64,000 nucleotides of DNA from Candidatus Micrarchaeota archaeon (GTDB lineage: Archaea; Micrarchaeota; Micrarchaeia; Anstonellales; Bilamarchaeaceae), in contig CAZBAM010000002.1 in the NCBI GenBank assembly GCA_964490215.1, positions 12,403 to 76,402 on the forward strand. Reading direction: 5' to 3'. Under the pieces are notes generated by a model. The model did not search any database. It worked only from the letters and a program-made list of their open reading frames with translations, and was not told the DNA's origin. Positions 9,052-50,050 of the stretch are shown here, piece after piece (the first letter of the stretch is position 1; each line of letters opens with the position of its first letter). Made by a program: the position numbers and the translations under genes.

Positions 9052-9153
9052 CCGCAATCACTCAATGTTGCAACGTGCTTTATTACGCCTGAGCTTCCCC
9101 GATTTATATATCGTCTTAACGCTATTTAATTCTTGCGCACCATCTCTTCTCTG

Positions 9154-12927: not shown

Positions 12928-12992
12928 GACAAATCAACTCCATTCGCCCGTTCGCGCTTCCCTGCGCCTTCCACGGGCACTATGCACGGACA

Positions 12993-19942: not shown

Positions 19943-19971
19943 GGGATGCGCGGCATTGAGGCCTGATTTGC

Positions 19972-20997: not shown

Positions 20998-22843
20998 AGG
21001 GCTGCCGGAAGTGCTGCGGCAGGCCGCGGACGCGCGGAAGGCTTTCCCGGACGCCAGGCTCATCCTCGCCGCGTGCGGCGCGCCGGTCCCGCCTGACCTC
21101 GCCGCGCGTTTTGATTCAGTCGTGCACTACTCTGACAAGGCAGAGGGCCACGGCCGCTCCTGGTCTGTGATACTGGGCTACGCTGAGAAAAACCGCTGCG
21201 AAGACGTCATAGTAACAAACGGCAACGACCAGCACATATTCGTAGCCGTCCGCAAGGCGTATGACAGCGCCCAGCCGGGCGTCACGGTCCCTGAGCGCAT
21301 GAAGCGCGTGATATTCACGCGGGACTCCATAGACGGCCTGACGCTGGAGGACCTTGAGAACGGGTTCCTGCGCCACAAGTGGGCCATGCCGGTGCGCGAC
21401 CTGCAGAGCGGGCTCTTCATAATCAGGGGGCTGAAATACCAGGCTGGCATCGCAGCCGGCATCGGCGCCATGGACAGCTGGCTGGGCGACCTTGCGTTCT
21501 ACGACCTGCTTTTCACCAGGCACCCGGACCTGCGGATAAGCACGCCGAAAATAGAGGTCCGCAGCCAGCACTACAGCCTTTCCTCGCGGCTTTTCGTGTT
21601 CAGGACGATAGCGGCATGCGAGCTGCATTTCGGCATCACGTTCCAGGAAATCATACGGCTGGCCGAGATGGCGCCCTTCGCTTATTTCTTTGACGGCAGC
21701 ATCAGCCGCGTGGGCGAGATAGAGACCGCTTGGCTCAACTACACGAACGCTGAGAAAATCCACGGCATGAAGGCCCTCATACTCGCGGCAGGCAGGGGCA
21801 GCGGCCTGAAGCCCATAACAGACACGCGGCCCAAGCCGCTGGTGCCAGTGGCCAACAAGCCGATGATACTGTACATCGTCGAGGACATCATCAACGCCGG
21901 CATAAGCGACATAGGCATAGTCGTCAGCCCTGCCGGCGGCCCCATAAGGGAAGCGGTCGGCGACGGCTCGCGCTGGAAGGTGAGGATAACCTACATAACC
22001 CAGCCAGAGCCGCTCGGCCTTGCGCACGCGGTGCAGTGCGCCAGGGGCTTCACCGGCGCCTCGCCGTTCATACTATACCTGGGTGACAACCTGCTCAGCG
22101 GCGGTATAAGCGGTTTCGTTTCCTCGTTCGCATCCTCTTCGGACGACGCGCGGCTGATGCTCACAGTTGTGGACGACCCGGCGCGCTTCGGCGTGGTGGA
22201 GCTGGACGACAAGCTGCGGCCTGTCCGCCTCGTGGAAAAGCCCAAAAACCCGCCGAGCAACTTCGCGGTCGTTGGCATCTACGGGTTCAGGCCTGCGATA
22301 TTCGGTGCCATAGCGAAGATAAAACCGTCAGCACGTGGCGAGCTTGAGATAACCGACGCGATACAGGAACTCCTCTCGTCCTCAAAGCCTGTTTCTGCCG
22401 AGTTCGTCAGGGACTGGTGGCACGACACAGGCAAGCCGCAGTCGCTGCTGGTGGCCAACGGCCTGGTGCTTGACCACATGAAGGAAACGTTCAACGAAGG
22501 TACGTGCGCCCAGTCCGCAAGGGTGTTCGGCAGGGTGAGAATCGGCCGAGGCAGCCGGATACTTGACAACACCGAGATACGTGGGCCGGCGTGCATAGGC
22601 AGCAACTGCGTCATAGGGCCGGACTGCCTTGTCGGCCCCTACACGTCCATAGGAGATGGCGCGAAGATAAGCGGCAGCGCCCTGGAATTCTCCATGGTGT
22701 TTGACAACGCCGTGATAAAGAATGCCGGCCGCATCAGCGACAGCATAATCGGAAGCGGCTGCACTGTCACTGGAAAGGGAAAAGGCAGGCCGGATGGCGG
22801 CAGGTCCCTGGTGCTCGGCGACGGGACGAAGACAGAAGTGTGA
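20957..22843 (+). CDS. rmlA: Fusion (or translationally overlapping pair with no intervening stop): about 270-aa N-terminal domain of unknown function plus long-form glucose-1-phosphate thymidylyltransferase (RmlA with a left-handed beta-helix C-terminus)
   Basis: C-terminal half from internal ATG 21767: MKALILAAGRGSGLKP...KPLVPVANKPMI...; LbH hexapeptide repeats at the end. N-terminal half (MTLAIGIRSFISAEGLPEVL...) has no recognisable family. ATG 20957 overlaps the rmlB 3' end. Confidence 0.6.
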   Translation: MTLAIGIRSFISAEGLPEVLRQAADARKAFPDARLILAACGAPVPPDLAARFDSVVHYSDKAEGHGRSWSVILGYAEKNRCEDVIVTNGNDQHIFVAVRKAYDSAQPGVTVPERMKRVIFTRDSIDGLTLEDLENGFLRHKWAMPVRDLQSGLFIIRGLKYQAGIAAGIGAMDSWLGDLAFYDLLFTRHPDLRISTPKIEVRSQHYSLSSRLFVFRTIAACELHFGITFQEIIRLAEMAPFAYFFDGSISRVGEIETAWLNYTNAEKIHGMKALILAAGRGSGLKPITDTRPKPLVPVANKPMILYIVEDIINAGISDIGIVVSPAGGPIREAVGDGSRWKVRITYITQPEPLGLAHAVQCARGFTGASPFILYLGDNLLSGGISGFVSSFASSSDDARLMLTVVDDPARFGVVELDDKLRPVRLVEKPKNPPSNFAVVGIYGFRPAIFGAIAKIKPSARGELEITDAIQELLSSSKPVSAEFVRDWWHDTGKPQSLLVANGLVLDHMKETFNEGTCAQSARVFGRVRIGRGSRILDNTEIRGPACIGSNCVIGPDCLVGPYTSIGDGAKISGSALEFSMVFDNAVIKNAGRISDSIIGSGCTVTGKGKGRPDGGRSLVLGDGTKTEV

Positions 22844-22889
22844 TACGATACTTCAGCATTACCATCCACCAGCCCACTTTATGCCCCAT

Positions 22890-23879
22890 TTATTTTCTGA
22901 AGCGTATTGTTTCACGCATATCAGATACCACGCCATGTATATTCAGCACCCGGTCAAAAACTGTGCTCCAATTGGAATCATACGGCATTTGCTCATAGAA
23001 TTGCATGCGACCGTTTTCTAGCCGGCTGGTGCTGTTGAAGTTGTAAAAATATATATTGCCGCGCGCTTGTATTATGCGGAAATATTTCTCTATCTCATTC
23101 CATGGCATTTCAATAAGAGAAACCGAGTTTATGAAAAGCCGTATGTCCCTGGCTTGCAGCACTTCCTCAGCGAGACTGGAGGGGATGAACACAATGCAGT
23201 CCTTTGCCCGGAAGTTCTTCAGGTCGTCTTTCTTTTCAACGAAAAAGAGCCTTCTGCCAGTGCTCTGCCTGGCCAGGTAAGTCATGCTCAATGCAAGCGT
23301 TTCAAACAGGTCTATTATGTAGTAGTTGTCCAGTTTATCCTGGTTGAGGCAGAATAGTTCCGCGAAGCCTCCGTACCCCCCCCCAATCTCACAAGCCGAG
23401 AACCTGCTTTCCTGGAGGACTGGCACGTTGGCCTTTATGACCGCCAGCTGTGCCGCATAACGTCTTATGTTCGCATTGAATATTTTCCCATTGAAGGAGT
23501 AAAACAAGTCCTGAAAGTTCTTCCGGTCAGGCGGCAGGGTTATGCCTGCCTCGGTAAGGACGTTAAACTCTATTCTTGGTCTGACGGACTGAAAAGGCCA
23601 GATAAGCGCATTTCTCATCATATGGAGATATAGCCGTCTGGTTATGCCCTGTTTGCTCCCGAAGCATCTCGACAGACCGCCAATCATGTATTGCCAGGTA
23701 CATCTCACCGGCGGGTCCAGCACGCCATCTGAGAATCGCGTAAGGTAGAATTTATCCAGCTTAGCCAGTTCGGCTTTTGTTCCGGCCATATCCTTCCATG
23801 TGCCAGACAATTCAGAGGCGTATCCATCCCATTTTTCCAATACGAACTTTGCAACGTTGTCGCGCGTTATTTCGAACAT
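22890..23879 (-). CDS. Putative sugar O-methyltransferase-like protein (class I MTase-like, EIGGGYGGFAE)
   Basis: Gly-rich SAM-binding-like motif; gene is visibly AT-richer than its neighbours. Confidence 0.4.
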   Translation of the reverse strand: MFEITRDNVAKFVLEKWDGYASELSGTWKDMAGTKAELAKLDKFYLTRFSDGVLDPPVRCTWQYMIGGLSRCFGSKQGITRRLYLHMMRNALIWPFQSVRPRIEFNVLTEAGITLPPDRKNFQDLFYSFNGKIFNANIRRYAAQLAVIKANVPVLQESRFSACEIGGGYGGFAELFCLNQDKLDNYYIIDLFETLALSMTYLARQSTGRRLFFVEKKDDLKNFRAKDCIVFIPSSLAEEVLQARDIRLFINSVSLIEMPWNEIEKYFRIIQARGNIYFYNFNSTSRLENGRMQFYEQMPYDSNWSTVFDRVLNIHGVVSDMRETIRFRK

Positions 23880-23888
23880 ACCAATCCC

Positions 23889-24677
23889 CTACAGCAGCGT
23901 GAACCCGCCATCAACGACGAGGTTCTGGCCTGTAACGTATTTCGCAGCAGGCGACGCGAGGAACACCGCAGCGCCCTTCAGGTCCGTGTCATTGGCCATC
24001 CTTCCCATGGGCGTCTTGTATTCGTAGTTCTTCACGAACTCCGGCGCCTGGCTGTTGAAGAGCCCGCCGGGCGAGATGCAGTTCACGCGGATGTTGTGCC
24101 TGGCGAGATAGGCCGCAAGGTAGCGCGTCATGTGTATCACGCCTGCCTTGGTGGCCGCATAGACTTCCGAACTGTTCCTGCCTGAATCGCCGTATATGCG
24201 GTAGTCAGCGGTCGTCACGCCATAGACCGAGCCGATGTTTATTATGCAGCCGCCCTTCTGCCTCATCATCTGCGCCGCGAACGCCTGCGAGCAAAGGAAC
24301 GTGCCGGTGAGATTGACCTTCAGCGCCTTTTCAAACTCCTCCACTGTCCTGTTCTCAAAAAGCGTGAATACGCCCATGCCTGCGTTGTTCACCAGCACGT
24401 CGGCCTTCCCGAATTCGGCAAGCACTGCCTTCAGTGCCTTCTCCACTGACTTGCGGTCTGTTATGTCCATCGCCAGCCCGACGCATTTCTTCCGGCCTTT
24501 TGAGAGCGCGTTCGCGCGCTTTACGCACTCCTTCAGCGCGTCGCCGTCAAGGTCAGCGAGCACCACGTGCGCGCCTGCCTCGGAATACGCCTTCGTGAGC
24601 TGGTCGCCGACCTGCCCTGCCGCGCCAGTCACCACCACGACCATGCCCTCAAGCCTGAAGGAATCAATCACGTTCAT
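23889..24677 (-). CDS. Short-chain dehydrogenase/reductase (classical SDR)
   Basis: VVVTGAAGQVG; NNAG; YAATKAGV (YxxxK). Internal ATG at 24677 (ORF to 24710). Confidence 0.6.
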   Translation of the reverse strand: MNVIDSFRLEGMVVVVTGAAGQVGDQLTKAYSEAGAHVVLADLDGDALKECVKRANALSKGRKKCVGLAMDITDRKSVEKALKAVLAEFGKADVLVNNAGMGVFTLFENRTVEEFEKALKVNLTGTFLCSQAFAAQMMRQKGGCIINIGSVYGVTTADYRIYGDSGRNSSEVYAATKAGVIHMTRYLAAYLARHNIRVNCISPGGLFNSQAPEFVKNYEYKTPMGRMANDTDLKGAAVFLASPAAKYVTGQNLVVDGGFTLL

Positions 24678-24744
24678 GCCAATGACACCTGGATGGTTTT
24701 CACACCGCACATAATAAAACCAATACGCTGGAAATTATTGCCAT

Positions 24745-26547
24745 ATGCCCGGAGACGCAATCAGTACAATCCGCATCCTGTTCAGGTGCGACGGCGGCAG
24801 GACGCCGGAAATCGGCACCGGCCACGTTGCGCGCTGCAGCCGCCTCGCCGAAGCCCTTGCCAGCGACGGCGACGTGGAAGCGTCCTTCCTGATGGGGGAC
24901 AACGATTTCTCAAGGGCGTTTGCGTCAGGGGCGAAATGGAAGGTCCATCTTTTCCCGGAAAACGACCTGAAGGCGTGCGCTGCCATACTCTCCAAGCACA
25001 AGCCTGACATACTCGTCGTGGACCGGCTGGACTCGGACCCCGCGTTCATGGACGCGGCCCGCAAGCTTTGCAGGGTGCTGGTGACGGTTGACGACCTCGG
25101 GCCTGGCGCGAAACTCGCTGACCTGGTGATAAACGGCATAGTGGGCGACGGCAAGGGGTCCTACACAGGCCCGGCCTACGTCATAACCCCGCCCCAGCCC
25201 GGCCTCGGCTCGCAGCCCGGCGCCTCGTTGAAGGAAATCCGGCCGGTGTGCGAAAAGATATTCGTCAGCTTCGGCGGCTACGACCACCTCAACCTCACCC
25301 TCAAGGCGGCCCGGGCGCTGGAGTCCCTGGACAAGTCAAAGGACGTGCGCATAGCGGTCGGCAGTGAATACCCGTTCCAGGCAGAGTTGGACGCATTCAT
25401 GAAAAGCTCCGGGCGCCGCTTCTCTGTTTACCGTGCGCCGGAAAACTTCGCCGAACTCCTGTCAGGCTCTGACCTCGCGATAACGAACGGTGGCCTCACC
25501 CTTTTTGAGGCCATGGCTGCAGGCGTGCCAGCGCTCGTGCTCGCGCAATACGACCACCAGGCAAAGACAGGGAGCGAATACGCGAAGCGCGGCGCGTGCG
25601 GTTTCCTGGGACTGGGGGACGCGGTCCCAGGGGCTGAGATATCCAGGCGCGCAGCCGCGCTCATGTCCGACCACGAGGCTAGGCAGCGCATGTCCCGCAA
25701 GGCCAGGAAGCTGGTGGACGGGAAGGGCCTCCGGCGGGTGGCAGACCTCGTGCGTGTCGTCAGGCCCCTGAACTGGGACAGCGGCTTTTTCAGGATGAAG
25801 ATAGCCAAGGTCACAGCCTCCCGCCTCAACGAAAGGATGGCATCGTTCATAGACGACTGGTGCGCAGCCAATTCGGTCCGCTGCCTCTACTACCTGTGCG
25901 ACTGCGACCACGCGGAAAGCGTCAGCATTGCAGAGGCGCACGGCTTCCACTTCACAGACATCCGGCTCACTTTGGAGGCAGACCTGGAAGGGCATCCGCA
26001 AGTCCATCAGGGAGGCCACCCGGAAAGCCACCTGGAAGGCCATCAAGGAGGTCATCAGGAAGGCCATTCGCAGCAGCGCGGCACCGGCCCTGACATCCGC
26101 GAGTGCGCAACCCAGGATCTGCCCGGCATAAGGGCCATCGCCGGCCGGAGCTACGTCATGAGCAGGTATTACTACGACGGCCACTTCAGCAAGGAAATGC
26201 TCGAGCGGTTCTACAGCGACTGGCTTGAAGGCACCTTCCGCTCCCCGCAGGGCAAGGTCTTCGTTGCGCACAGGGACGGGAAGCCCGTGGGCTACGTTTC
26301 AGGCGAGGTTGATTCCGCTGCCGGGCACGGCAGGATAATCCTGGTCGGCGTGGACGAGGCCAGCTCAGGCGACGGCACCGGCAGGCGGCTGGTGGACGCA
26401 ATGCTGGGCTGGATGCAGGGCCGCGGCTCGTACACCGTGGAGGTTGTGACGCAGGGCCGGAACATCCCTGCCCAGCGGCTCTACCAGAAATGCGGGTTTA
26501 AGATAGTTTCAGCGCACATATGGTATCACAAATGGTTTCAGCATTAG
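24745..26547 (+). CDS. pseGH: PseG–PseH fusion: UDP-2,4-diacetamido-2,4,6-trideoxy-hexose hydrolase-like domain plus GNAT N-acetyltransferase domain, joined by a His-rich linker
   Basis: N-terminus IRILFRCDGGRTPEIGTGHVARCSRLAEAL matches the PseG start (R.DG....G.GH..RC..LA); C-terminal VFVAHRDGKPVGYVSG...VDAMLGWMQGRG...QRLYQKCGFK is GNAT; linker EGHPQVHQGGHPESHLEGHQGGHQEGH. Confidence 0.6.
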   Translation: MPGDAISTIRILFRCDGGRTPEIGTGHVARCSRLAEALASDGDVEASFLMGDNDFSRAFASGAKWKVHLFPENDLKACAAILSKHKPDILVVDRLDSDPAFMDAARKLCRVLVTVDDLGPGAKLADLVINGIVGDGKGSYTGPAYVITPPQPGLGSQPGASLKEIRPVCEKIFVSFGGYDHLNLTLKAARALESLDKSKDVRIAVGSEYPFQAELDAFMKSSGRRFSVYRAPENFAELLSGSDLAITNGGLTLFEAMAAGVPALVLAQYDHQAKTGSEYAKRGACGFLGLGDAVPGAEISRRAAALMSDHEARQRMSRKARKLVDGKGLRRVADLVRVVRPLNWDSGFFRMKIAKVTASRLNERMASFIDDWCAANSVRCLYYLCDCDHAESVSIAEAHGFHFTDIRLTLEADLEGHPQVHQGGHPESHLEGHQGGHQEGHSQQRGTGPDIRECATQDLPGIRAIAGRSYVMSRYYYDGHFSKEMLERFYSDWLEGTFRSPQGKVFVAHRDGKPVGYVSGEVDSAAGHGRIILVGVDEASSGDGTGRRLVDAMLGWMQGRGSYTVEVVTQGRNIPAQRLYQKCGFKIVSAHIWYHKWFQH

Positions 26548-26600
26548 GTTTCAGCATCAACCCTGTTAGCCCTGTTTGACGATGACTGTTTGGCGATGAG

Positions 26601-27809
26601 ATGAACAAGCCTGCGATTGACGGTGGAAAACCAGTGGCACAGGAGAAGGATTACATCCGCTTCTGCCCCCCCATGATCGAGGTCGACGACCTGCGGGCTG
26701 TCGAAGAGATCCTCAAGAGCGGATGGCTGAGCACAGGCCCGAAGGCGCAGGAGTTCGAGGCCGCGTTCATGGAATACACGGGCGCGAAGAACGCGCTCGC
26801 GCTCAACTCCTGCACAGCAGGCCTGCACCTGTCGCTCCTGGCCCACGGCATAGGCCCCGGCGACGAGGTCATAGTGCCTGCGATGACCTTCGCTGCCACT
26901 GCCAACGTGGTCGAGCTGGTGGGCGCGAAGCCTGTGCTCGCCGATTCCGTGCAGTCAGGCTTCAACATGGATCCGGCTGACGCAGCCAGGCGGATAACGC
27001 CCAGGACGAAGGCCATGATTCCGGTCCATTTCGGCGGCCTGCCCTGCGAGATGGACGCGATAGGTGCGCTGGCTGTGGAAAAGGGCCTGCACATAATAGA
27101 GGATTGCGCACATGCCATCGGTTCTGCCTACCGCGGCAAGCGCATAGGCAGCTCAGCCAACCTCTCGTGCTTCAGCTTCTACCCCACGAAAAACATGACA
27201 ACGATAGAAGGCGGCATGGTGACCGGCCCGGCAGCGGACCGGGCGCTTTTCTCCCGCATGCGCATGCTCTCACTACACGGCATGTCAAAGGACGCGTTCA
27301 AGCGGTTCTCGAAGGAGGGCGCGGCGCACTACGAAATAGAGATGCCCGGCTTCAAGTACAACATGCCTGACGTTTCAGCCGCGCTCGGTCTGAGCCAGCT
27401 GAGGAAGGTGGAGCGGTTCAACGCCCTGCGCGCCAGGTACGCGAAATACCTCGCCGACCGGCTCGAGGACGTGCCCGGCATCATACTGCCGCCGGACGTG
27501 CCGCCGCACGTGAAAAGTTCCTGGCACATGTTCCCGTTCATGGTCAACCCGGCTGAAACACGGATAACGCGGGACCGCATGCTCGAGGCCCTGAAAAAGG
27601 AAAACATAGGCGTCGGGGTGCACTACCGCTCCCTACACGTCCACAAGTACTACCGCGAGAAATACGGGTTCCGCAGGGAGGACTACCCCCGCGCGGCTTT
27701 CATCTCAGACAACACCTTCTCGGTTCCGTTCTCGCATTCCATGAGCGAAAAGGAGCTCGAGCTGGTGGCTGACGCACTGGTGAGGATAGCGAGGCACTAC
27801 AAGAAATAG
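26601..27809 (+). CDS. pseC: DegT/DnrJ/EryC1/StrS-family sugar aminotransferase (PseC-like)
   Basis: ...VDDLRAVEEILKSGWLSTGPKAQEFEAAF...; PLP-lysine region FSFYPTKNMT. Confidence 0.7.
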   Translation: MNKPAIDGGKPVAQEKDYIRFCPPMIEVDDLRAVEEILKSGWLSTGPKAQEFEAAFMEYTGAKNALALNSCTAGLHLSLLAHGIGPGDEVIVPAMTFAATANVVELVGAKPVLADSVQSGFNMDPADAARRITPRTKAMIPVHFGGLPCEMDAIGALAVEKGLHIIEDCAHAIGSAYRGKRIGSSANLSCFSFYPTKNMTTIEGGMVTGPAADRALFSRMRMLSLHGMSKDAFKRFSKEGAAHYEIEMPGFKYNMPDVSAALGLSQLRKVERFNALRARYAKYLADRLEDVPGIILPPDVPPHVKSSWHMFPFMVNPAETRITRDRMLEALKKENIGVGVHYRSLHVHKYYREKYGFRREDYPRAAFISDNTFSVPFSHSMSEKELELVADALVRIARHYKK

Positions 27810-27876
27810 CAAAAAAAACAGGCGGCAGGACGCCGTAAGGAAACAGGCGAAGAGTTGCTGGTAAGGTGCTGATTCC

Positions 27877-28683
27877 ATGGCTGTTGGCGCGATAATACAG
27901 GCAAGGATGGGCTCCACGAGGCTTCCGGGCAAGATCATGAAGACCGTCCTCGGCAAGCCGCTGCTGGCGCTCATGCTGGAGCGCGTGAAGCTGGCCCGCT
28001 CGCTGGACGTAGTGGTGGTCGCGATACCTGACACGCCTGAGAACGACGGCCTCGCAGCGCTCTGCGGGCAGTGCGGGGTGCAGGTGTTCAGGGGAAGCGA
28101 GAACGACGTGCTGTCGAGATACTACCTGGCCGCGAAGAAGTTCTCCCTTGACCCGGTGGTCAGGCTGACGTCCGACTGCCCGCTCATCGACCCGGCGCTC
28201 GTGGACCACGCTGTTTTCCTGTACCGGAAGGGCGGCTACGACTACTTCACGAACGCCATAGAGCGGACCTATCCGGACGGCCAGGACATAGAGATAATCT
28301 CCTTCCGGGCGCTTGAAACCGCGTACCAGCGGGCGACTGACACCCACGACCGGGAGCACGTGACGACATACATAGGCGTCAGGGACAAAGAGTTCAGGCA
28401 CGGCAACTTCCGCTACAAGAAAGACCTTTCAAAACTCAGGTGGACCGTTGATTATCCCGCGGATTTTGATTTCGTGGCCGCGGTCTTCAGGGAGCTTTAT
28501 CCGTCAAAAGGCGCGGCTTTCTCCATGGAGGACGTCCTGGAGCTGCTGGCCCGCAAGCCCGGGATAGGCAGGATAAACGAGAACGTCACAGGCAAGGACA
28601 ACCTCAAGATAGCGAAGGAAAGGCGGAAGAAGGGGATGCGCGGAACCGCGGCCGGCGGGAAACGGGAAACCGGAAACCAATAA
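27877..28683 (+). CDS. pseF: CMP-nonulosonic acid synthetase (acylneuraminate cytidylyltransferase family, PseF/NeuA-like)
   Basis: [23 protein letters not shown], the CTP-transferase signature. Confidence 0.65.
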
Positions 28684-28697
28684 AAACCGTCCACGAT

Positions 28698-29291
28698 ATG
28701 GTTACAACGATGAAACCATCCGATTTGTTGCAGGAGCACTTCAAAGCCTGCCAGCGCATCAGCGCCGCCGAGATTGAGGCAGTCGCATCCCCAATCATCG
28801 CCGCCCTCAAGGCCGGCAACAAGGTCCTCATCTGCGGCAACGGCGGCAGTGCCGCCGACGCCCAGCATTTCGCGGCAGAGCTCAGCGGCAGGTACGTCCG
28901 GGAAAGGAAGGCGCTGCCAGGCATCGCGCTCACTGCCGACACGTCAGTGCTGACGGCGATTTCAAACGACTACGGATTCGGGCGCGTGTTCGCACGCCAG
29001 GTGGAGGCGCTTGGCAGGAAGGGCGACGTGCTCGTGCTCATAAGCACCAGCGGCGAGTCCGAGAACCTGCTGGAGGCCGCGAACGCGGCGAAGGCGCTCG
29101 GCATGGCCACGGTCGGCCTCCTCGGGAAAGGGGGCGGGCGGCTGAAGATGCCGTGCGACAGGTCGCTCGTGGTCGCCTCGGACAGCACGCCGGCGGTGCA
29201 GGAGATGCACATACTCATAATCCACTGCATCTGCGGGATGGTGGACGACGCGTTCGCAGGGCCGTTGCGCGTAGCCCACAAAAGCGGGTAG
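28698..29291 (+). CDS. gmhA: D-sedoheptulose-7-phosphate isomerase (SIS domain)
   Basis: [22 protein letters not shown], the GmhA signature. Confidence 0.7.
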
Positions 29292-29296
29292 CTGCC

Positions 29297-30313
29297 ATGT
29301 CCAGGAAGGCGAAAATACTTGTCATCGGCGACGTTATGCTTGACCATTACGTTTACGGCTCCGTGAACCGGATGTCGCCTGAGGCGCCGGTGCCGGTGCT
29401 TGACGTGGAAAAGGAGGAGGGCTTCCCTGGCGGGGCCGGCATAGTCGCCTCAGCGCTCGCGGCGCTCGGGGCCGACGTGTCCTTCCTCTCGGCGGTGGGC
29501 GACGACGCGGCCGCAGGGGACGTTGAGAAGCTGCTGGCCAAGCAGGGCGTTTCCGCGAGCCTGGAAAAGGAAAGCGGCAGGAAAACCACGGTGAAGACGC
29601 GCTTCGTCCGCACCAATCCGCGGTTTGAGATGCTCCTCCGCGCTGACAGCGAGACCCGCGAGGGCATAAGGCCCGGGACAGAAACCGCGCTGTTCGCAGC
29701 GCTGGAGATTGAGGCTGCAGAATTGCGCGGCGTGAAGGGGCGGAAGGTTTTTGACATAATAATCGTTTCAGACTACGCGAAGGGCCTGCTCACGGGAAGC
29801 ATGATAGCGAAAGTGCTCGGGTTCGCCCGTGCGAAAGGGAAGAGGGTCGTCGTGGACACCAAGGGCGACATCCGCGCCTACAAGGGCGACAACGTCATAC
29901 TAGTGCCTAACCTGCACGAGCTCGGCCTCGCGTCCGGTAGGGAAATACCGAACGAGGACGCCGGCGTCCGGGAGGCCGCACTCGCCCTGTCCAAATCAAG
30001 CGGCAGCGTGGTTGTCGTGAAGCGGAGCGGGAAGGGCGCGAGCATAGCAGAGGCGGCATCCAAGGCGGCCGGAACCGGTTCGTTCCGCACTTATCCGTCC
30101 ATGGTGAAGCCTGAGGACGTCGTGAACGTCTCCGGCGCAGGCGACATCTTCGTCGCGATATTCACGCTCGCCCTCGCCTCGGGGAAAAGCATGGACGATG
30201 CGGTGAAGCTGGCGAACCTCGGGTGCGCGAAGGCAATCGCTAAGCAGCACCCGTCCATAACCAGTGCGGAATTGTCCGGACTCACTGCGGGTGCCGGGAA
30301 CGCGCAGGACTGA
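29297..30313 (+). CDS. hldA: D-glycero-beta-D-manno-heptose-7-phosphate kinase (HldE domain I, PfkB family)
   Basis: KILVIGDVMLDHYVYGSVNRMSPEAPVPVL...GGAGIVASALAALGA; C-terminal GAGD motif (NVSGAGDIFVA). ATG 29297 inside ORF 29153..30313. Confidence 0.7.
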   Translation: MSRKAKILVIGDVMLDHYVYGSVNRMSPEAPVPVLDVEKEEGFPGGAGIVASALAALGADVSFLSAVGDDAAAGDVEKLLAKQGVSASLEKESGRKTTVKTRFVRTNPRFEMLLRADSETREGIRPGTETALFAALEIEAAELRGVKGRKVFDIIIVSDYAKGLLTGSMIAKVLGFARAKGKRVVVDTKGDIRAYKGDNVILVPNLHELGLASGREIPNEDAGVREAALALSKSSGSVVVVKRSGKGASIAEAASKAAGTGSFRTYPSMVKPEDVVNVSGAGDIFVAIFTLALASGKSMDDAVKLANLGCAKAIAKQHPSITSAELSGLTAGAGNAQD

Positions 30314-30320
30314 TGATTCC

Positions 30321-30815
30321 ATGGGTGAACTACTTACGCTTGAAAAGCTCGCGGCCGTGCGGCAGAAGCTCAGGGACCAGGACAAGAAGGCGAAGGTCGT
30401 TTTCACCAACGGGGTGTTTGACCTGATGCACGTGGGCCACGTGCGCTTCCTGAAAAAGGCGAAATCGCACGGTGCAGTGCTCATCGTCGGCATCAACTCG
30501 GACGAGTCGGTGAAAAAGATAAAAGGCCCGTCCAGGCCCATAGTGGCAGAGAAATACCGTGCCGAAGTCCTGTGCGCGCTCTCCTGCGTTGATTACGTGG
30601 TCATTTTCGGGGAAACCACCCCGGAAAAAACGATTGAAGCGCTCCAGCCGGACATCCACGTGAAGGGCGGCGACTGGAAGGCTGACAAAATGCCCGAGAC
30701 CGGGCTCGTGCGCTCCTACGGCGGCAGGGTGGTCATAGAGGATTCCGAATCCGAGATAACCACCACTTACCTGATAAAGAAAATAATGGAAGCCTACTCA
30801 GGCGGGGTGCGGTGA
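30321..30815 (+). CDS. hldC: D-glycero-beta-D-manno-heptose-1-phosphate adenylyltransferase (HldE domain II, cytidylyltransferase-like)
   Basis: KVVFTNGVFDLMHVGHVRFLKKAK...INSDESVKKIKGPSRP (HxGH motif). Confidence 0.7.
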   Translation: MGELLTLEKLAAVRQKLRDQDKKAKVVFTNGVFDLMHVGHVRFLKKAKSHGAVLIVGINSDESVKKIKGPSRPIVAEKYRAEVLCALSCVDYVVIFGETTPEKTIEALQPDIHVKGGDWKADKMPETGLVRSYGGRVVIEDSESEITTTYLIKKIMEAYSGGVR

Positions 30816-30819
30816 GCCC

Positions 30820-31950
30820 TTGCCCCTGTTTTACGGGATTGAGCGCGTCGTGGAGAAGAACGTCCTCCCGGCGTTCTGCACGCTGCTCTCCTTCTTCAAG
30901 AGGAAGCGCCAGCCCGGCCCGGAGCCGAAGGGCATCCTCGTCCTGCGCTTCTGGGGCGTTGGCGAGACGATACTCACGCTGCCCATGCTCAAGGCGCTCA
31001 AGGCCGCGAGGCCGGACGCGAAAATCACGGTCCTTTGCACCCCGCGCAACCGCGAAGTGTTCTTCGCCCAGCCGTTCATAGACGCGTGCAGGACCGTGTG
31101 GACGTGGCAGCTCCCGGCGCTCGTGCTCGCGAACCTGTGGAAATACGACCTCGTGCTGGACACCGAGCCGCATTTCGCGATATCCGCCATCCTCGCCTTC
31201 TTCATGGGGAAGCGCTCCATCGGTTTCGGCTACGGTGAGCGGGCGAAGCTCTACGACGTAAAAGTCCCTTACAACGACCGCCAGCACGTGGTCTATACGT
31301 TCTGCGACCTGCTCCAGCCCCTTGGCATCGCTGCAAGGCCGGCCGAACTCGTCCGGTTGAAATACGGCGAGGACGCGCGCAAGGCCGCCGAGCTGCGCTT
31401 TGAGGCCAACAACATCCAGCCGAAAACCGGCAAGCCGATTGTCGGCGTGCACGCGTTCTGCGGCCCGACAGCCCCGTGGCGCGCATGGCCCAGGGAGCGC
31501 TTCGCAGAGCTGATAGATAGGATAACCGCGAAATACGGGTGCACGGTGATACTTACCGGCTCAGGGGCCGAGGCCGCAGGCAACGAGCAGATAATCTCGC
31601 TGCTGAAACGGAAGGGCTGCGTGTACAATTTCCCTGACCTCGCCTCGTCAACGCTCTTCTACCTCATAAGCCAGTACGACCTCATGATATCCAACGACAC
31701 CGGCCCGATGCACATCGCCGCGGCCCAGGGCGTGCCGGCCATAGGCCTTTTCGGCCCGAACACGCCGGAGCGCTTCGGCCCGTTCCCGCCGGGCCGCAAC
31801 GTCGCCATCTATCACCAGACGCCCGGCCACCCGGTCATAAACGTCCATCTCAACGAATTCGGCAAGTGCGACGGCGCGTGCATGCGCCTGATAACCGTGG
31901 ATGAGGTCTTCGCCGCTGCGGACGGCATCCTCGCCAGGAGAAGGGCGTGA
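30820..31950 (+). CDS. GT9-family glycosyltransferase (ADP-heptose-dependent heptosyltransferase-like)
   Basis: GILVLRFWGVGETILTLPMLKAL...; C-terminal NDTGPMHIAAAQGVPAIGLFGP, typical of the RfaF/RfaC/WaaQ family. Confidence 0.6.
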   Translation: MPLFYGIERVVEKNVLPAFCTLLSFFKRKRQPGPEPKGILVLRFWGVGETILTLPMLKALKAARPDAKITVLCTPRNREVFFAQPFIDACRTVWTWQLPALVLANLWKYDLVLDTEPHFAISAILAFFMGKRSIGFGYGERAKLYDVKVPYNDRQHVVYTFCDLLQPLGIAARPAELVRLKYGEDARKAAELRFEANNIQPKTGKPIVGVHAFCGPTAPWRAWPRERFAELIDRITAKYGCTVILTGSGAEAAGNEQIISLLKRKGCVYNFPDLASSTLFYLISQYDLMISNDTGPMHIAAAQGVPAIGLFGPNTPERFGPFPPGRNVAIYHQTPGHPVINVHLNEFGKCDGACMRLITVDEVFAAADGILARRRA

Positions 31951-31960
31951 GGCGATTCAC

Positions 31961-32995
31961 ATGCCCAGGATAGCCTTCCGCGCAGAGTCAGACCCCAAAT
32001 CAGGTTCCTGGCGGCTGCTGCGCTGCCTTGCGCTCGCGTCAGGCCTGAAGGAAACGGACCCCTCGTGCGAAATCACGTTCCTTTCGCACGCGCGCGACGC
32101 GCAGGCAATCGCGCGCAGCGGCTTCGGCCACGCCCAGTTTGGCGAGCTTAACCTGGTTTCCTGGGACCTTGAGGCGACCGCTGAGAAGTCAGAGGAGCTC
32201 GGCATCGGCATGCTCGTGGTGGACCGGCCCGGGATTGACGAGGAGTTCCTCAGTTCGCTCGCAGGGAAGGTGAGGACGCTCGCGGTCTTCTGCGACCAGG
32301 CCAGCCTCAAATCATACGCAGCCCACGCAGTCATAGACCCAGGCGTCCATGCGCACCTGGCCGAATACCCGTGCGGCGGGGCCACGTTCCTGGGCACCGA
32401 GTTCGCCCTGCTACAGCCGGAATTTGACGAATTCCAGGAGTTCAGTTGCCAGAACCCGGAGAAGGCCAGGCGCATTCTCGTGTATTTCAACGGCCCGGAC
32501 CACGCCCCGGAAGCCGTGCGCCTGCTCAAGCAGGTCCGCGCCCAGTTCTCCGCGTCCATAATCACCGGGCCTGAAGCCGCGGGGGGCGAGGAGCTGGCGC
32601 GGGAGATAGGCATCGACCCGCGTTTTGACGTCCTGCGCAATGACGGCAGCATCGCCAAACGGCTCGCGTCGTGCGATTTCGCCATCACCGGTCCTGAATC
32701 GCTCTGCGAGCCTGCGCTTTTCGCGCTGCCCACGGCGCTCATGGGTGAGTCGCCGGTTTCCGATTACGCAGCGAAGAACGGCCTCGCGCTTTCGCTCGGC
32801 GACGCAGGCTCCCTGGACGCCCAGGGCGCGAAGCCGCTTGAAGCGCTCCTCACTGACAAGCCTGCCCGGGACCGCATGTCAGCCCGCCTGAACGGGCTGG
32901 TGGACGGCATGGGCCGCTTCAGGCTCGCTGAAGAGCTGCTGGAGCTTCATCGGGGCGAAGGGCAGGCCGGCCGAAGCGAAAACGAACCGGTTTAA
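31961..32995 (+). CDS. Second PseG-like / glycosyltransferase-28 C-terminal-like (MurG-like) protein
   Basis: MPRIAFRAESDPKSGSWRLLRCLALA... resembles the PseG N-terminus; internal ATG 31961 within ORF 31901..32995. Confidence 0.45.
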   Translation: MPRIAFRAESDPKSGSWRLLRCLALASGLKETDPSCEITFLSHARDAQAIARSGFGHAQFGELNLVSWDLEATAEKSEELGIGMLVVDRPGIDEEFLSSLAGKVRTLAVFCDQASLKSYAAHAVIDPGVHAHLAEYPCGGATFLGTEFALLQPEFDEFQEFSCQNPEKARRILVYFNGPDHAPEAVRLLKQVRAQFSASIITGPEAAGGEELAREIGIDPRFDVLRNDGSIAKRLASCDFAITGPESLCEPALFALPTALMGESPVSDYAAKNGLALSLGDAGSLDAQGAKPLEALLTDKPARDRMSARLNGLVDGMGRFRLAEELLELHRGEGQAGRSENEPV

Positions 32996-33059
32996 ATTAT
33001 GCCGGGCCGTGCGCCAGCAAGTATTTAATTATACCAGCGCAAAAGTCACCTGAGTTCTC

Positions 33060-33968
33060 ATGAAAATTCTCGTTACCGGGGCGCTCGGTTTCATAGGTTC
33101 CAACATCACCGAGCGGCTCGTGAAGGAAGGGCACGAAGTGACCGCGTTGGACAGCATGCACACAGGCAGCGACGCCAACATCGCGTCAGTGAAGGGGCGC
33201 GTCCGCGTCATAAAGTCCGATTCTGGCTCTGTCGGAAAGATGGAAGAGAAGTTTGACGCCATCATCCACGAGGGCACGTATTCCTCCTCCCCGATGTACC
33301 GGAAGGAGCCGCACCTTGCAGCGAAGGTGCTGGACGAATGGATATCCATCCTGGAGCATGTCAGGAAGCACGACGGCTGCAAGCTCATCTTCGCCTCGTC
33401 CAGTTCCATATACAACGGCAACCCCGCGCCTTACCGCGAGGACATGCCTGTGAAGGTCACGGACTTCTACACCGAAGGACGCCATGCCATGGAGCGCATG
33501 GCAGACCTATACCACCAGTTCTACGGCATAAAGACGACTGCGCTGCGCTATTTCAGCGTCTATGGTCCGCACGAGGACGCCAAGAAAACCTACGCGAACA
33601 TAATAACGCAGTTCCTCTGGGCCATGAAAAAGGGCGAGCGGCCGATCATACTTGGCGACGGCAGGCAGTCCAGGGACTTCATATACGTGGACGACGTCGT
33701 GGAGGCCAACATGCTCGCTCTCCGGGCCAGCAAGCACGGCGTTTTCAACGTGGGCACAGGAAAAGCGGCAAGCTTCAACGAAGTGGTGGCCATGCTCAAC
33801 CGCCAGCTGGGCACGTCCATAGAACCGGCCTACGAGCGGAACAACATAAAGAACTACGTCGGGACCACGCTTGCCGACACCACGAAGGCAGCTGAAGGGC
33901 TCGGTTTCAGGGCCAAAACCGGGCTGGAGGACGGCGTCCGGCGTCTTCTGGCGTATTATCAAAGGTAG
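33060..33968 (+). CDS. hldD: ADP-L-glycero-D-manno-heptose 6-epimerase-like SDR
   Basis: MKILVTGALGFIGSNI; IHEGTYSS (HldD FHEGACSS); RYFSVYGPHE (HldD RYFNVYGPRE); NVGTGKAASFNEVVAM (HldD NLGTGRAESFQAVADA). TATA-like tatttaatta about 30 nt upstream. Confidence 0.55.
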   Translation: MKILVTGALGFIGSNITERLVKEGHEVTALDSMHTGSDANIASVKGRVRVIKSDSGSVGKMEEKFDAIIHEGTYSSSPMYRKEPHLAAKVLDEWISILEHVRKHDGCKLIFASSSSIYNGNPAPYREDMPVKVTDFYTEGRHAMERMADLYHQFYGIKTTALRYFSVYGPHEDAKKTYANIITQFLWAMKKGERPIILGDGRQSRDFIYVDDVVEANMLALRASKHGVFNVGTGKAASFNEVVAMLNRQLGTSIEPAYERNNIKNYVGTTLADTTKAAEGLGFRAKTGLEDGVRRLLAYYQR

Positions 33969-34038: not shown

Positions 34039-35718
34039 ATGGACGGCGACGAGGACATGGTGGATGAGGTCTCGGTCCATTCCACCGAGGTCGCAAGGGG
34101 CAGCTTCTGGAGCCTTTTCGGCGGCATGTTCTACAAGTTCATCTCATTCATTTACGTGGTACTCATAGCCAGGATGGCGTCCCAGAACGACGTGGGACTC
34201 TTTTACCTCTCGCTGGCCGTGGTGACCACGTTCATAGTGGTCAGCGACCTGGGCCTGCCCGCCTCGCTCATCAGGTACGCGCCATATTTTGAAGGGAAGG
34301 GTGAGCACGGGAAAGTGCGCGCGCTGCTGAAGTACGCGTACCTGGTCGTCAGCCTCCTGAGCGTCCTGTTCTTGGCTGCCATATGGCTGTGCGCGGACAC
34401 CATAGGCTCAATGTACCAGAACCCGCTGCTGCCCGCAGCCCTGCGCGTGGTTTCCCTGTTCCTGCTGCTGAACAACATCTTCAGGATAAACTATTCCTTC
34501 CTCAACGGCCTCAGCGACATAAAGCAGATGCAGTTCCTCCTGAACATGGACAACCTGCTGAAGTTCCTGCTCACGCTGGTCTTCTTCCTGTTCCTGGGCG
34601 CCTCTTTCATCACAATCGCCGTGCCGTTCCTGCTGGCCCACCTGCTGGTCGTGCTGATGGGCTTCGTGCTCGTCTCCAGGAAGGAGCGCACCCTGCCTTC
34701 AGGCCAGGACAGCCTGCCCTCGTTCTCATTCGTGCTGAAGGAGGTCGTTCCCTTCGGCCTGATGCTCACGGCCATATACTCGTTCAACATGGTCCTGGCC
34801 TCGTCCGACCGCATCCTGCTCGGCTACCTGGCACCGCCCTCGCAGGCAACCCAGCTCGTCGCAGTCTATTCAATATCCACGACGCTGGCCACTGTGCTCA
34901 TCATGCTGCCAGGTGCGATAGGCGCCATATTCCTCCCGGTGATGTCCCGGCTCGCTGGCAGGGAAGAGCTCGGGCAGATGCGCTCCACCATGGGCACAGC
35001 CCAGCGCTGGCTCCTGTTCATCATCCTTCCGGCAACGGCCGTCATGGTCTCCCTGCCGTCCGAACTGCTGGGCATTTTCTACGGCGAGGCATACCAGGTG
35101 GGATGGCTTGCAATGGCGATATTCACCCTCGGGATAATGATGAACGGCTTCGCCTACCTGATTTCCATGGCCCTGGCGGCCCTGAGGCAGGTCGGGCTGG
35201 AACTCAGGATATCCGCAGTCTCAGCACTGGCCAACATCGCCTTCTGCATCCTGCTCATCCCAGGGTTCGGCATGGCCGGCGCGGCCGCTGCGTCATTCCT
35301 CAGCTTCACCCTGCTCGCGCTCCTCTACCGCCACTACGGCCGGCGCCTTTACGGTTTTGCGTTCCCGCCGGAGACGCCCAGGCTGATGGTGGCCGCGGTG
35401 GCCGCATTCGCCGCCATGGTCCTGCTCAAGGGGGCCGCGTTCTCCCTGCTGGGCGCGTTCTGGCAGCCTTCCAGCGCCCAGTTCTCCATCGCCGACAAGG
35501 CAGTCTACCTTTCGTTCCTGGCCCTTCTGGCAGCGTTCGTGGCAGGCGTTTTCCTCCTCCTGGCGCTCCTGCTGAAATGCCTCAGGCGCGAGGACGTGTC
35601 GCTGCTGGAGAAAATCCTGCGCCGCGCCATGGTCCCCCAGCCCCTGGCGGCGCTGGCGCTCCGCTTCGCTTCCTATGGCACCGCCGTGCCGGAGCATGCC
35701 CCGCCCGCCCGCAAATAG
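34039..35718 (+). CDS. Wzx-like oligosaccharide flippase (MOP superfamily, polysaccharide biosynthesis protein)
   Basis: About 14 predicted TM segments; N-terminal region typical of Polysacc_synt family proteins. Confidence 0.55.
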   Translation: MDGDEDMVDEVSVHSTEVARGSFWSLFGGMFYKFISFIYVVLIARMASQNDVGLFYLSLAVVTTFIVVSDLGLPASLIRYAPYFEGKGEHGKVRALLKYAYLVVSLLSVLFLAAIWLCADTIGSMYQNPLLPAALRVVSLFLLLNNIFRINYSFLNGLSDIKQMQFLLNMDNLLKFLLTLVFFLFLGASFITIAVPFLLAHLLVVLMGFVLVSRKERTLPSGQDSLPSFSFVLKEVVPFGLMLTAIYSFNMVLASSDRILLGYLAPPSQATQLVAVYSISTTLATVLIMLPGAIGAIFLPVMSRLAGREELGQMRSTMGTAQRWLLFIILPATAVMVSLPSELLGIFYGEAYQVGWLAMAIFTLGIMMNGFAYLISMALAALRQVGLELRISAVSALANIAFCILLIPGFGMAGAAAASFLSFTLLALLYRHYGRRLYGFAFPPETPRLMVAAVAAFAAMVLLKGAAFSLLGAFWQPSSAQFSIADKAVYLSFLALLAAFVAGVFLLLALLLKCLRREDVSLLEKILRRAMVPQPLAALALRFASYGTAVPEHAPPARK

Positions 35719-35769: not shown

Positions 35770-36621
35770 ATGTTAGAGGAAGTCATATTCGGCAAGCTTG
35801 TCATGCCCGGGGAGATGGTGCGCCTCCTTGTCGCTTTCATCGGCACCTGCGCGGCAGCGTACTACGACGTTTTCAACACCAAGAACGTGCCCAACGGCCT
35901 CCTTTACGCGTTCCTGGCCGCCGCCCTCCTGGTGGACGCCATATTCTACCAGCCTGACCTGTTCTGGTTCTCCATAGGCATGGCGGTGTTCTTCTCCGCC
36001 GTGGGCTACATCTTCTACCGCGTGGGCCAGCTCGGCGGCGCGGACATCTTCGTGCTCGTCTCCATAATGCTGCTGCTGCCCATCCACCCGTCGTTCATCG
36101 GCATGCCGTTCAACATGCCCTTCGCGTTCTCGGTGTTCATATTCTCCGGCGTGCTGTTCGCGCTCTACGTCATGGCATATTTCGGCTGGAAGCTGTCCCA
36201 GAACCCGGACGTCCGGCCGAACCTCCTCTACGGCCTCATGCTGGTCCCCTACTTCCTTTTCGCCTACGTCTATGTCAACTCGTTCATATTCTCGCCGGTC
36301 TATTTCGTCTTCATCTCGCTGCTCCTGTTCGCCACCATATTCTTCCTGATGTTCAGGGACTCGCTCAACCTGCTGCTGGCAGAGGAGCTTCCGCTGGCAC
36401 AGGTCCAGCCCGAGGACGTGCTCGCGCTGGAGATAATGAACAAGGACCTGATGGAGCGGTACAAGATACAGCGCGTGGTGACCACAGCAGAGCTTGAGCG
36501 CCTGAAGAGGACGAAGGTAACGGACGTGTGGGTATACACGAAGCTGCCGCCCTTCCTGCCCTTCATAGTGGCCGGCATGGTGCTTGCGCTGTTCTTCGCG
36601 AGGAGCCTCATCCTGATATGA
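35770..36621 (+). CDS. Polytopic membrane protein, A24-family (prepilin/preflagellin peptidase-like) aspartic peptidase candidate
   Basis: GQLGGADIFVLVSIMLL resembles the GGGD(V/I)K-type motif of A24 peptidases; multiple TM segments. Confidence 0.4.
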   Translation: MLEEVIFGKLVMPGEMVRLLVAFIGTCAAAYYDVFNTKNVPNGLLYAFLAAALLVDAIFYQPDLFWFSIGMAVFFSAVGYIFYRVGQLGGADIFVLVSIMLLLPIHPSFIGMPFNMPFAFSVFIFSGVLFALYVMAYFGWKLSQNPDVRPNLLYGLMLVPYFLFAYVYVNSFIFSPVYFVFISLLLFATIFFLMFRDSLNLLLAEELPLAQVQPEDVLALEIMNKDLMERYKIQRVVTTAELERLKRTKVTDVWVYTKLPPFLPFIVAGMVLALFFARSLILI

Positions 36622-36896
36622 TTGCCGACGTCACCGCGGTCCCCAAGTCCGGGCGTTTTTCAGTTTCCCTCAAGGACGGCAAGGTGAAGATATTCCTTAA
36701 GAGCGCAGCCGAGGGCAACAAGGCCAATATGGAGCTGGTGAAGGAGCTTTCAAAACTGCTCGGTGCGCCCGTGCGCATCGTCTCAGGCCACACGTCGCGG
36801 CGCAAGCGCATTGAAGCCGGCGTCAGCGAGGCCGAATGGGCAGCATTCATACAAAAAGCGCATGCGGCCGGGAATAGGCTTAAAAATTCCGGCTGA
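36618..36896 (+). CDS. DUF167/YggU-family small protein
   Basis: MIADVTAVPKSGRFSVSLKDGKVKIFLKSAAEGNKANMELVKELSKLLGAPVRIVSGHTSRRKRIE matches the DUF167 consensus (PvdGkAN...L..G.TSR.K). ATG 36618 overlaps the upstream stop. Confidence 0.5.
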   Translation: MIADVTAVPKSGRFSVSLKDGKVKIFLKSAAEGNKANMELVKELSKLLGAPVRIVSGHTSRRKRIEAGVSEAEWAAFIQKAHAAGNRLKNSG

Positions 36897-49876: not shown

Positions 49877-50050
49877 GGGCCCATAGTCGAGTTCCGCCTT
49901 TTGGAAAAAGCGTTGCCGCAATCTCGCGGCAACATTTGACGCTCAAAGCGTCAAAGGCGGCCCAAAACTTATTGTTTAGGGCATGACGACAATGGTTAAG
50001 ACGTCGCTCTTACACAGCGAAGATCCCCAGTTCGATCCTGGGTGGGCCCA
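49877..50050 (+). tRNA. tRNA-Val (anticodon UAC) interrupted by an approximately 100-nt intron/insertion in the D-loop (between positions 17 and 18; 5' exon 49877..49893, 3' exon 49994..50050)
   Basis: 5' exon GGGCCCAUAGUCGAGUU (acceptor, U8, A14, G15). 3' exon GGUUAAGACGUCGCUCUUACACAGCGAAGAUCCCCAGUUCGAUCCUGGGUGGGCCCA: anticodon stem-loop with UAC, 5-nt variable loop, T-arm CCCAG-UUCGAUC-CUGGG, perfectly complementary 7-bp acceptor, discriminator A. The intervening 100 nt contains two perfect hairpins closed by CCGCC/GGCGG. Confidence 0.5.

Follow-up and report, generated by a model that had tools for sequence, protein, structure and literature searches.

The 64,000-nt stretch of DNA analyzed here (the window) comes from Candidatus Micrarchaeota archaeon (Bilamarchaeaceae; assembly GCA_964490215.1, contig CAZBAM010000002.1, positions 12,403-76,402 of the forward strand) and carries, at positions 28698-33968, a group of genes for making and transferring an activated heptose. 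Four of them encode the sedoheptulose-7-phosphate isomerase GmhA, an HldA-like kinase of the PfkB family, an HldC-like nucleotidyltransferase, and a glycosyltransferase of family 9 (GT9). They form a heptose cassette that is real and, from its sequence, looks functional. We consider it probable that this is a variable cassette inserted where a conserved Micrarchaeia surface-glycan locus is hypervariable, working by the mechanism proposed below. [quoted passage not shown]

Families were assigned with the equivalog cut-offs of NCBIfam (TIGR models), Pfam gathering scores, and the best matches in the PDB; the table gives coordinates and main scores. The five open reading frames (ORFs) that had been assigned to the pathway are all found on the forward strand at exactly the coordinates given for them, and four of the five family identities hold. 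The fifth ORF, a short-chain dehydrogenase/reductase (SDR), is not the HldD of the pathway, and a sixth one, encoding a PseG-like protein, lies in the interval and had been passed over. GmhA scores above the cut-off of its family, which places it in the ADP-β-D-manno-heptose pathway, and its translation contains the GmhA motif cited in the first-pass annotation. It is 79% identical to the GmhA at the same position of a relative's locus (L002; ratio of nonsynonymous to synonymous substitution rates, dN/dS, 0.28). The nucleotidyltransferase passes the adenylyltransferase cut-off as well, has its HxGH motif in the form MHVGH, and is closest in the PDB to Burkholderia pseudomallei HldC (5X9Q, 7.9e-40). 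The stand-alone kinase matches rfaE_dom_I with 228 bits, against 62 bits for the runner-up family, and its best PDB match is B. cenocepacia HldA (4E84, 5.6e-36; ribokinase, 2.5e-7). In Burkholderia, too, HldA and HldC are encoded by separate genes. The four cassette genes are 4-7 nt apart, and the packing is operon-like, with gaps of 4-14 nt from the CTP_transf_3 cytidylyltransferase gene through the PseG-like gene and no TATA-like box between the heptose genes.

The same gene order (gmhA, kinase, nucleotidyltransferase, GT9, PseG-like, SDR, flippase, A24-like) is repeated on L002, L004/L003, and L096, and on the last it continues to LemA, HtpX, psmA, and pyrH. We cite loci of other genomes by label: L002 and L096 are contigs of 148 kb and 355 kb (the source contig has 78 kb), L090 is Bilamarchaeum, L006 Woesearchaeota, L007 and L024 Methanosarcinales, L013 an unclassified archaeon, L082 Methanococcus maripaludis, and L085 a bacterium of the candidate phyla radiation (CPR). 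L002, L004, L014, and L096 were judged on the visible parts of their contigs. The order is thus found in at least three other Micrarchaeia assemblies, and the 148-kb and 355-kb contigs come from other samples. The heptose genes have a GC content at third codon positions (GC3) of 0.75-0.86 and a codon-usage distance of 0.08-0.11, both within the range of the housekeeping genes. None of the four cassette ORFs is disrupted in any of four independent assemblies, and their dN/dS values against L002 are 0.13-0.28. Synteny, composition, and substitution rates together lead us to conclude that the cassette is native, not chimeric, and under purifying selection, in agreement with the first-pass proposal of a heptose-activating module and a GT9 belonging to an archaeal surface-glycan locus. 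The archaeal surroundings noted there are confirmed as well: the flanks encode an archaeal proteasome alpha subunit (326 bits), an archaeal-type UMP kinase, TBP, L21e, DUF655, an RFC-like AAA protein, XPD, and an intein-bearing helicase. Bacterial contamination as the origin of the heptose genes, or their chimeric joining to an archaeal contig, has nothing in its favor beyond what one would expect beforehand of bacterial families, and its probability is practically negligible. The junctions from GT9, PseG-like, SDR, and flippase to LemA, HtpX, and psmA recur on the two long contigs, a 5.4-kb Logan contig covers the stretch from the GT9 gene to the A24-like gene at 100% identity, and there is no break in GC or codon usage. 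Recent horizontal transfer is likewise ruled out by composition and synteny. The closest genomes are Micrarchaeia-type metagenome-assembled genomes (MAGs) of the DPANN archaea, and the GT9 is 84% identical to that of ‘Ca. ainarchaeum sp.’ STA_33.

Comparison of the loci reveals a core block with exchangeable genes upstream. The core has a fixed order: SDR, MOP flippase, A24-like, (GT2), DUF167, LemA, HtpX, psmA, where GT2 is a glycosyltransferase of family 2. Upstream of it, the window, L002, and L096 have the heptose cassette without GmhB, while in L090 and L094 the place is taken by a GT4 and further sugar genes, and heptose genes are absent from the nearest 8 kb. L092 and L095 have yet another arrangement, a true HldD (323.6 and 326.6 bits), a GT9-like gene, a fused HldE, GmhA, GmhB, and GT9, after which comes the same core SDR. 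A third cassette architecture, with split genes, GmhB, and an upstream SDR, occurs on the P0013 contig. The cassettes of L092, L095, and P0013 resemble that of the window in being anchored by the SDR with its YxxxR motif, flippase, A24-like, LemA, HtpX, and psmA genes and in having orthologous GT9 (60-64% identity) and GmhA (60%). They differ from it by the presence of GmhB, a true HldD, and a second GT9-like gene, and, in L092 and L095, by the fusion of HldE. The flippase is next to the SDR in all Micrarchaeia loci examined except L091, where the SDR is in an unrelated context, and the A24-like protein is 54-83% identical to its orthologs in L002, L090, and L092-L095. The PseG-like gene, placed between a glycosyltransferase and the core SDR, is semi-core: its orthologs accompany the heptose cassette in L002, L003, and L096 and follow a GT4 without the cassette in L090 and L093. 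The core-plus-cassette architecture of this locus and the cassette variant without GmhB and HldD are new here, if modestly so. For the biology of DPANN archaea, they document a conserved glycan-export core beside psmA whose sugar cassettes can be exchanged, an arrangement that has its analog in the O-antigen and capsule loci of bacteria and may have to do with attachment to hosts or escape from viruses.

The absence of GmhB from the window, already remarked in the first-pass annotation, was confirmed in three ways. A tblastn search with the authentic E. coli GmhB (taken from NC_000913) gave no match (best E = 1.4), a hidden Markov model (HMM) of nine GmhBs, including archaeal and CPR in-cluster ones, gave at best E = 0.06 on a stretch of 42 aa, and a regular expression for HAD motif I was negative. 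As far as their contigs are visible, the nine-sequence HMM had no match in L002, L004, or L014 either, and no GmhB was seen in L096. With the same probes we did find an in-cluster GmhB in L006, L007, L024, L013, L082, L085, L092, and L095, those of L092 and L095 scoring 162 bits with TIGR00213, over its cut-off. Among the best 120 Micrarchaeia-type GmhB homologs, none is on the 78-, 148-, or 355-kb contigs, which is suggestive only; some are on contigs of relatives whose GT9 has 60-66% identity to ours. This distribution among the relatives makes the loss of a linked GmhB look like a derived trait of the subclade of the window. One could see in it the sign of a decaying or incomplete remnant that gives no usable nucleotide-heptose for want of GmhB and HldD, both missing in the subclade and present in those same relatives. 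We find this very improbable, given the intact ORFs and low dN/dS values described above. In E. coli, gmhB is also unlinked from the other heptose genes, and its loss is only partially penetrant, which we count as a further argument against a remnant. Moreover, viral and eukaryotic enzyme sets without the phosphatase still gave ADP-heptose in assays, according to Tang et al. (PMC11461863).

A different question is raised by the core SDR, which might be the ADP-heptose 6-epimerase of the cassette. Among the SDRs of the window (at least six in total), it is the closest to true HldDs, with 224 bits in a custom HldD HMM against at most 122 for the others; its top NCBIfam match is heptose_epim, and it keeps the second-base Lys of the HldD type (E. 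coli K178). Yet we judge this role unlikely. Its heptose_epim score is far below the cut-off, whereas the cassette HldDs of L092, L095, and M. maripaludis reach 301-327 bits. In the PDB it matches UDP-hexose 4-epimerases best (4ZRM, 2.3e-40), ahead of HldD (3SXP, 6.8e-28; 1EQ2, 5.5e-21), and the canonical catalytic YxxxK is replaced by YxxxR in 117 of its 120 closest homologs (57-100% identity). Such homologs were found in Ca. Bilamarchaeum and Micrarchaeota. The distribution of the gene is what decides: the same SDR (57-85% identity) holds the core position without nearby heptose genes in L090 and L094, is in another context in L091, and stands alongside a true HldD in L092 and L095. Hence, we do not regard it as the epimerase of the cassette. 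It also has a TATA-like box of its own, read directly in the 64-nt gap before the gene, which suggests that the SDR may open a separate transcription unit. No better candidate emerged, because the remaining SDRs of the window all score below it, and those upstream of gmhA in L096 and L004 reach just 65 and 55 bits with heptose_epim. Separately, the SDR of the window and that of L002 (12168-13052) are only 59% identical in amino acids (dS, the synonymous divergence, is 1.13), while their neighbors are 74-87% identical (dS 0.46-0.74), which suggests allele replacement by recombination at this gene alone.

The GT9 is the enzyme expected to use the activated heptose. Besides scoring well above the Pfam gathering score, it has the GT-B fold in an AlphaFold (AF2) model built on 51 homologs, with a pLDDT (predicted local distance difference test) of 94.3. 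The top Foldseek matches of this model are the heptosyltransferase WaaF (1PSW, 7e-20, template modeling [TM] score 0.80), the Veillonella GT9 3TOV, and WaaC. In an alignment with E. coli WaaC and WaaF, R221 corresponds to K192, E251 to E222, D293-T-G-P-M-H298 to D261...H266, and E49 to Asp13. The WaaC residues D13, K192, E222, D261, and H266 are those that we take to form the site for the ADP-heptose donor, so that the counterpart positions would be kept, with Glu49 for Asp13. D293 and H298 do not vary across 51 members of the clade, and the conservation of E49 and R221 is at least 90%. The enzyme thus has in common with the products of the E. coli rfaD(hldD)-waaF-waaC module the GT9 fold, the DTGxxH donor motif, and a phosphate-contacting Lys/Arg. 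It differs from WaaC and WaaF in the Glu at the Asp13 position, in an extra N-terminal helix that the model places at residues 2-24, before the Rossmann strand, and in the region of the acceptor. The basic loop of WaaC for Kdo2-lipid A (Kdo, 3-deoxy-D-manno-oct-2-ulosonic acid; R60/R63/K64, R120) falls in gaps in the GT9 clade, although this alignment is below 20% identity and indicative only. The equivalog cut-offs for the HepI, HepII, and HepIII heptosyltransferases of lipopolysaccharide (LPS) are all missed (TIGR02193, 63.7 bits against 185.3; TIGR02195, 66 against 134.6; TIGR02201, 63.8 against 170.2), and the archaeal host has no lipid A/Kdo acceptor. Together, the host, the missing loop, and the unreached cut-offs point to an acceptor other than LPS.

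This conclusion is reinforced by the company the enzyme keeps. The GT9 belongs to a variant with the motif LWxxGE that occurs for the most part in hosts lacking LPS and is common to Micrarchaeia, Woesearchaeota, Aenigmarchaeota, Methanosarcinales MAGs, M. maripaludis, and CPR bacteria. Heptose-biosynthesis genes lie within 10 kb of the GT9 gene in 10 of 15 LWxxGE loci, against 5 of 54 loci with GD-type GT9s (Fisher p = 1.8e-5), and the linkage extends to M. maripaludis and CPR bacteria, both of which lack LPS. This tight association of one GT9 clade with heptose genes in organisms without LPS is, in a modest way, new here, and with the donor-site residues it supports an ADP-heptose donor and a non-LPS acceptor. 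From the flanking flippase and sugar genes, we infer that the acceptor is a lipid-linked oligosaccharide.

The GT9 could instead be a protein O-heptosyltransferase like TibC and AAH, modifying an S-layer or pilin-like protein directly. Enzymes of this kind (bacterial autotransporter heptosyltransferases, BAHTs) are recognized by an N-terminal β-barrel, a β-hairpin thumb, and a four-Cys iron finger (PMC4358343). They resemble the LWxxGE clade in having a non-LPS acceptor, in keeping with hosts that lack LPS. TibC takes ADP-D,D-heptose (PMC4358343), and most LWxxGE GT9s, like many other non-enteric GT9s, have a C-terminal CxxC...C...C motif whose position resembles that of the TibC iron finger. 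In addition, the CPR cassette (L085, 9291-13331: GmhA, kinase, GmhB, nucleotidyltransferase, GT9) adjoins the gene of a 1346-aa protein with S-layer homology (SLH) domains, which hints at heptosylation of the S-layer or cell wall in Patescibacteria. For the enzyme of the window, though, we think direct protein heptosylation distinctly unlikely. Its TM scores are 0.80-0.83 to WaaF and 3TOV and only about 0.55 to TibC, the model starts with a helix rather than the β-barrel, and the first CxxC pair is lost both here and in L002 (residues 335-356; two of the four Cys of the clade are kept), so that neither model nor alignment gives it the features of a BAHT. Its gene also lies between sugar-biosynthesis genes and that of a Wzx-type flippase.

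A pathway can be proposed from these assignments. GmhA, as expected of its family, would convert sedoheptulose-7-phosphate to D-glycero-D-manno-heptose-7-phosphate, from which the PfkB kinase would make the β-1,7-bisphosphate. A phosphatase encoded outside the window would remove the 7-phosphate, and the HldC-like enzyme would then produce ADP-D-glycero-β-D-manno-heptose, the likely product of the cassette. The choice of ADP follows from the sequence of this enzyme: the FEHDRSTT of HldC 5X9Q aligns with SESEITTT in the window, with Ile in place of Arg at the STTR5 position. This Arg is present in Burkholderia HldC and is associated with CTP/UTP promiscuity by Tang et al. (PMC11573728), and the enzyme of the window, lacking it, is probably ADP-selective. 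Since there is no true HldD, the D,D-isomer is the likely donor. The GT9 would add the heptose, at the cytoplasmic face of the membrane, to an oligosaccharide linked to polyprenyl or dolichyl phosphate that would also receive sugars from the neighboring nonulosonic-acid genes. The MOP flippase would finally export it, to be attached to proteins or lipids of the surface.

Several points weigh against this account. The kinase is under its equivalog cut-off (228 bits against 345) and shares just 28-29% identity with the kinase domain in the other Micrarchaeia HldEs (L092/L095), for which identities are 60% for GmhA, 60-62% for GT9, and 47% for the nucleotidyltransferase; by this comparison, non-orthologous kinase replacement may have occurred between cassette types. 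With GmhB found neither in the window nor in the visible contigs of the relatives, one step would depend on a phosphatase encoded elsewhere. No source of sedoheptulose-7-phosphate is visible in the window (no transketolase or transaldolase), where a gene like that of hexulose-6-phosphate synthase of the ribulose monophosphate (RuMP) pathway (41712-42413, reverse strand) is all there is, and no oligosaccharyltransferase (AglB) was identified in it. The STTR5 rule has exceptions (PMC11461863), and we likewise infer what the acceptor is, which anomer results, and which nucleotide is used. A bolder version of the pathway, which we hold to be a long shot, bypasses the canonical heptose-1-phosphate, for instance by having the HldC-like enzyme adenylylate the 1,7-bisphosphate itself and the LWxxGE GT9 attach a D,D-heptose still bearing its 7-phosphate; in this version, the clade, from DPANN archaea, methanogens, and CPR bacteria, would also be a distinct family of non-LPS heptosyltransferases for surface glycans of episymbiont-host contact. 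It is also conceivable that the nucleotide-heptose serves no glycan at all, going into a secondary metabolite like septacidin or into a signaling molecule, given that some bacteria use heptose nucleotides for building natural products (PMC11573728). We see this as highly improbable in a locus where a GT9 gene is directly downstream, a flippase, several glycosyltransferases, and nonulosonic-acid genes are all around, and no genes for a natural-product scaffold were seen in the surroundings.

A heptosylated archaeal glycan, as our preferred pathway to a lipid-linked oligosaccharide implies, is plausible. The first-pass annotation treated these enzymes as hallmarks of Gram-negative bacteria, a view that is outdated. 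Archaeal enzymes for nucleoside diphosphate (NDP)-heptose have been assayed and make ADP-heptose, with a role called elusive by Tang et al. 2024 (commentaries PMC11573728, PMC11461863). ADP-heptose clusters were described in 2025 in the glycan regions of M. maripaludis KA1 and JJ (PMC12667266), heptose is present in the N-glycan of Thermoplasma (PMC11407970), and GT9 homologs are routinely annotated in DPANN MAGs. The cassette is therefore of a kind already reported in archaea; we found no published report of heptose in DPANN. The M. maripaludis JJ cluster encodes GmhA, a nucleotidyltransferase, a kinase, GmhB, three GT9s, a true HldD (300.7 bits), and a flippase. Like the window, M. maripaludis (PMC12667266) combines an archaeal host with separate gmhA, PfkB kinase, and nucleotidyltransferase genes, an orthologous LWxxGE GT9 (39% identity), and a Wzx-type flippase in the locus. 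It differs by its GmhB, true HldD, and two further GT9 paralogs, whereas the cassette of the window has a single GT9, neither GmhB nor HldD, and lies in a DPANN genome beside nonulosonic-acid genes. In Burkholderia, which provides the best solved-structure matches, the product goes to the LPS core. The Thermoplasma acidophilum N-glycan (PMC11407970) sets a precedent for archaeal surface glycans with heptose, but its heptose is a different isomer, with no known biosynthetic genes and no link to a GT9 shown.

Nothing in these results overturns current views. The locus and its relatives show that the heptose genes of archaea and CPR bacteria move together with a particular GT9 clade and with a Wzx-type flippase, in surface-glycan islands that are hypervariable. 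They also give archaeal NDP-heptose, whose purpose Tang et al. called ‘elusive’, a concrete and testable use, the heptosylation of a lipid-linked envelope glycan. M. maripaludis JJ, with its orthologous GT9, would be a tractable model.

Table. Features of the heptose interval and neighboring glycan genes (positions in the window)
Feature	Position	Strand	Basis
NeuB	18824-19942		Family match
Nonulosonic-acid genes: PseG+GNAT fusion, PseC-like aminotransferase, CTP_transf_3 cytidylyltransferase	24745-28683	+	Family matches; upstream of gmhA
gmhA, sedoheptulose-7-phosphate isomerase (SIS domain)	28698-29291	+	TIGR00441, 210.4 bits (cut-off 209.45); Pfam SIS_2
hldA-like PfkB kinase (putative D-glycero-β-D-manno-heptose-7-phosphate 1-kinase), stand-alone	29297-30313	+	TIGR02198 rfaE_dom_I, best NCBIfam match
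hldC-like heptose-1-phosphate nucleotidyl(adenylyl)transferase	30321-30815	+	TIGR02199 rfaE_dom_II, 188.5 bits (cut-off 181.5); HxGH
GT9 glycosyltransferase, LWxxGE clade	30820-31950	+	Pfam PF01075, 102 bits (gathering score 22)
PseG-like GT-B protein, semi-core	31961-32995	+	TIGR03590 PseG, 76 bits (under cut-off of 153.6); no Pfam match
TATA-like AT-rich box, ATTTAATTATA	33023-33033	+	Read directly in the 64-nt gap; the SDR start codon follows after about 27 nt
Core extended SDR, YxxxR for YxxxK	33060-33968	+	heptose_epim, 155.7 bits (cut-off 274.6)
MOP/Wzx-type flippase, core block	34039-35718	+	Pfam Polysacc_synt, Polysacc_synt_3
A24-like polytopic membrane protein, core block	35770-36621	+	Weak Pfam Peptidase_A24, 23.7 bits (under gathering score)

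The genes around the cassette are largely concerned with sugars. A near-complete set of the pseudaminic/legionaminic-acid type is found directly upstream (18824-28683, 12993-13985, 19972-20997), consisting of NeuB, the PseC-like aminotransferase, the PseG+GNAT fusion, the CTP_transf_3 cytidylyltransferase, and PseB/LegB-like SDRs. The gaps in the part that runs up to gmhA are 53, 67, and 14 nt. From these upstream genes and NeuB, we conclude that the surface glycan made by this locus is complex. Genes for GT2, GT4, and UDP-sugar dehydrogenase are also present, and a B12-binding radical SAM enzyme (7543-9057, reverse strand), encoded among the sugar-nucleotide genes, may carry out C-methylation or another radical modification of a sugar.

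A simple longest-ORF pass had concealed four genes, an SDR (19972-20997, forward), a GT2 (4646-5362, forward), a sugar-1-phosphate nucleotidyltransferase (12208-12930, reverse), and a DUF167 protein (36528-36896, forward). As a consequence, the 669-aa ORF at 20834-22843, whose N-terminal 300 aa or so have no family match, probably begins later than listed. Concerning RNA genes, which have no bearing on the cassette, ARAGORN found no tRNA in the window and Rfam found one, at 49979-50050. Finally, the DEAD/ResIII helicase gene (59594-63052, reverse) is split by an intein that contains a LAGLIDADG homing endonuclease, and its GC3 of 0.57, against about 0.8 elsewhere, explains the low-GC end of the window.

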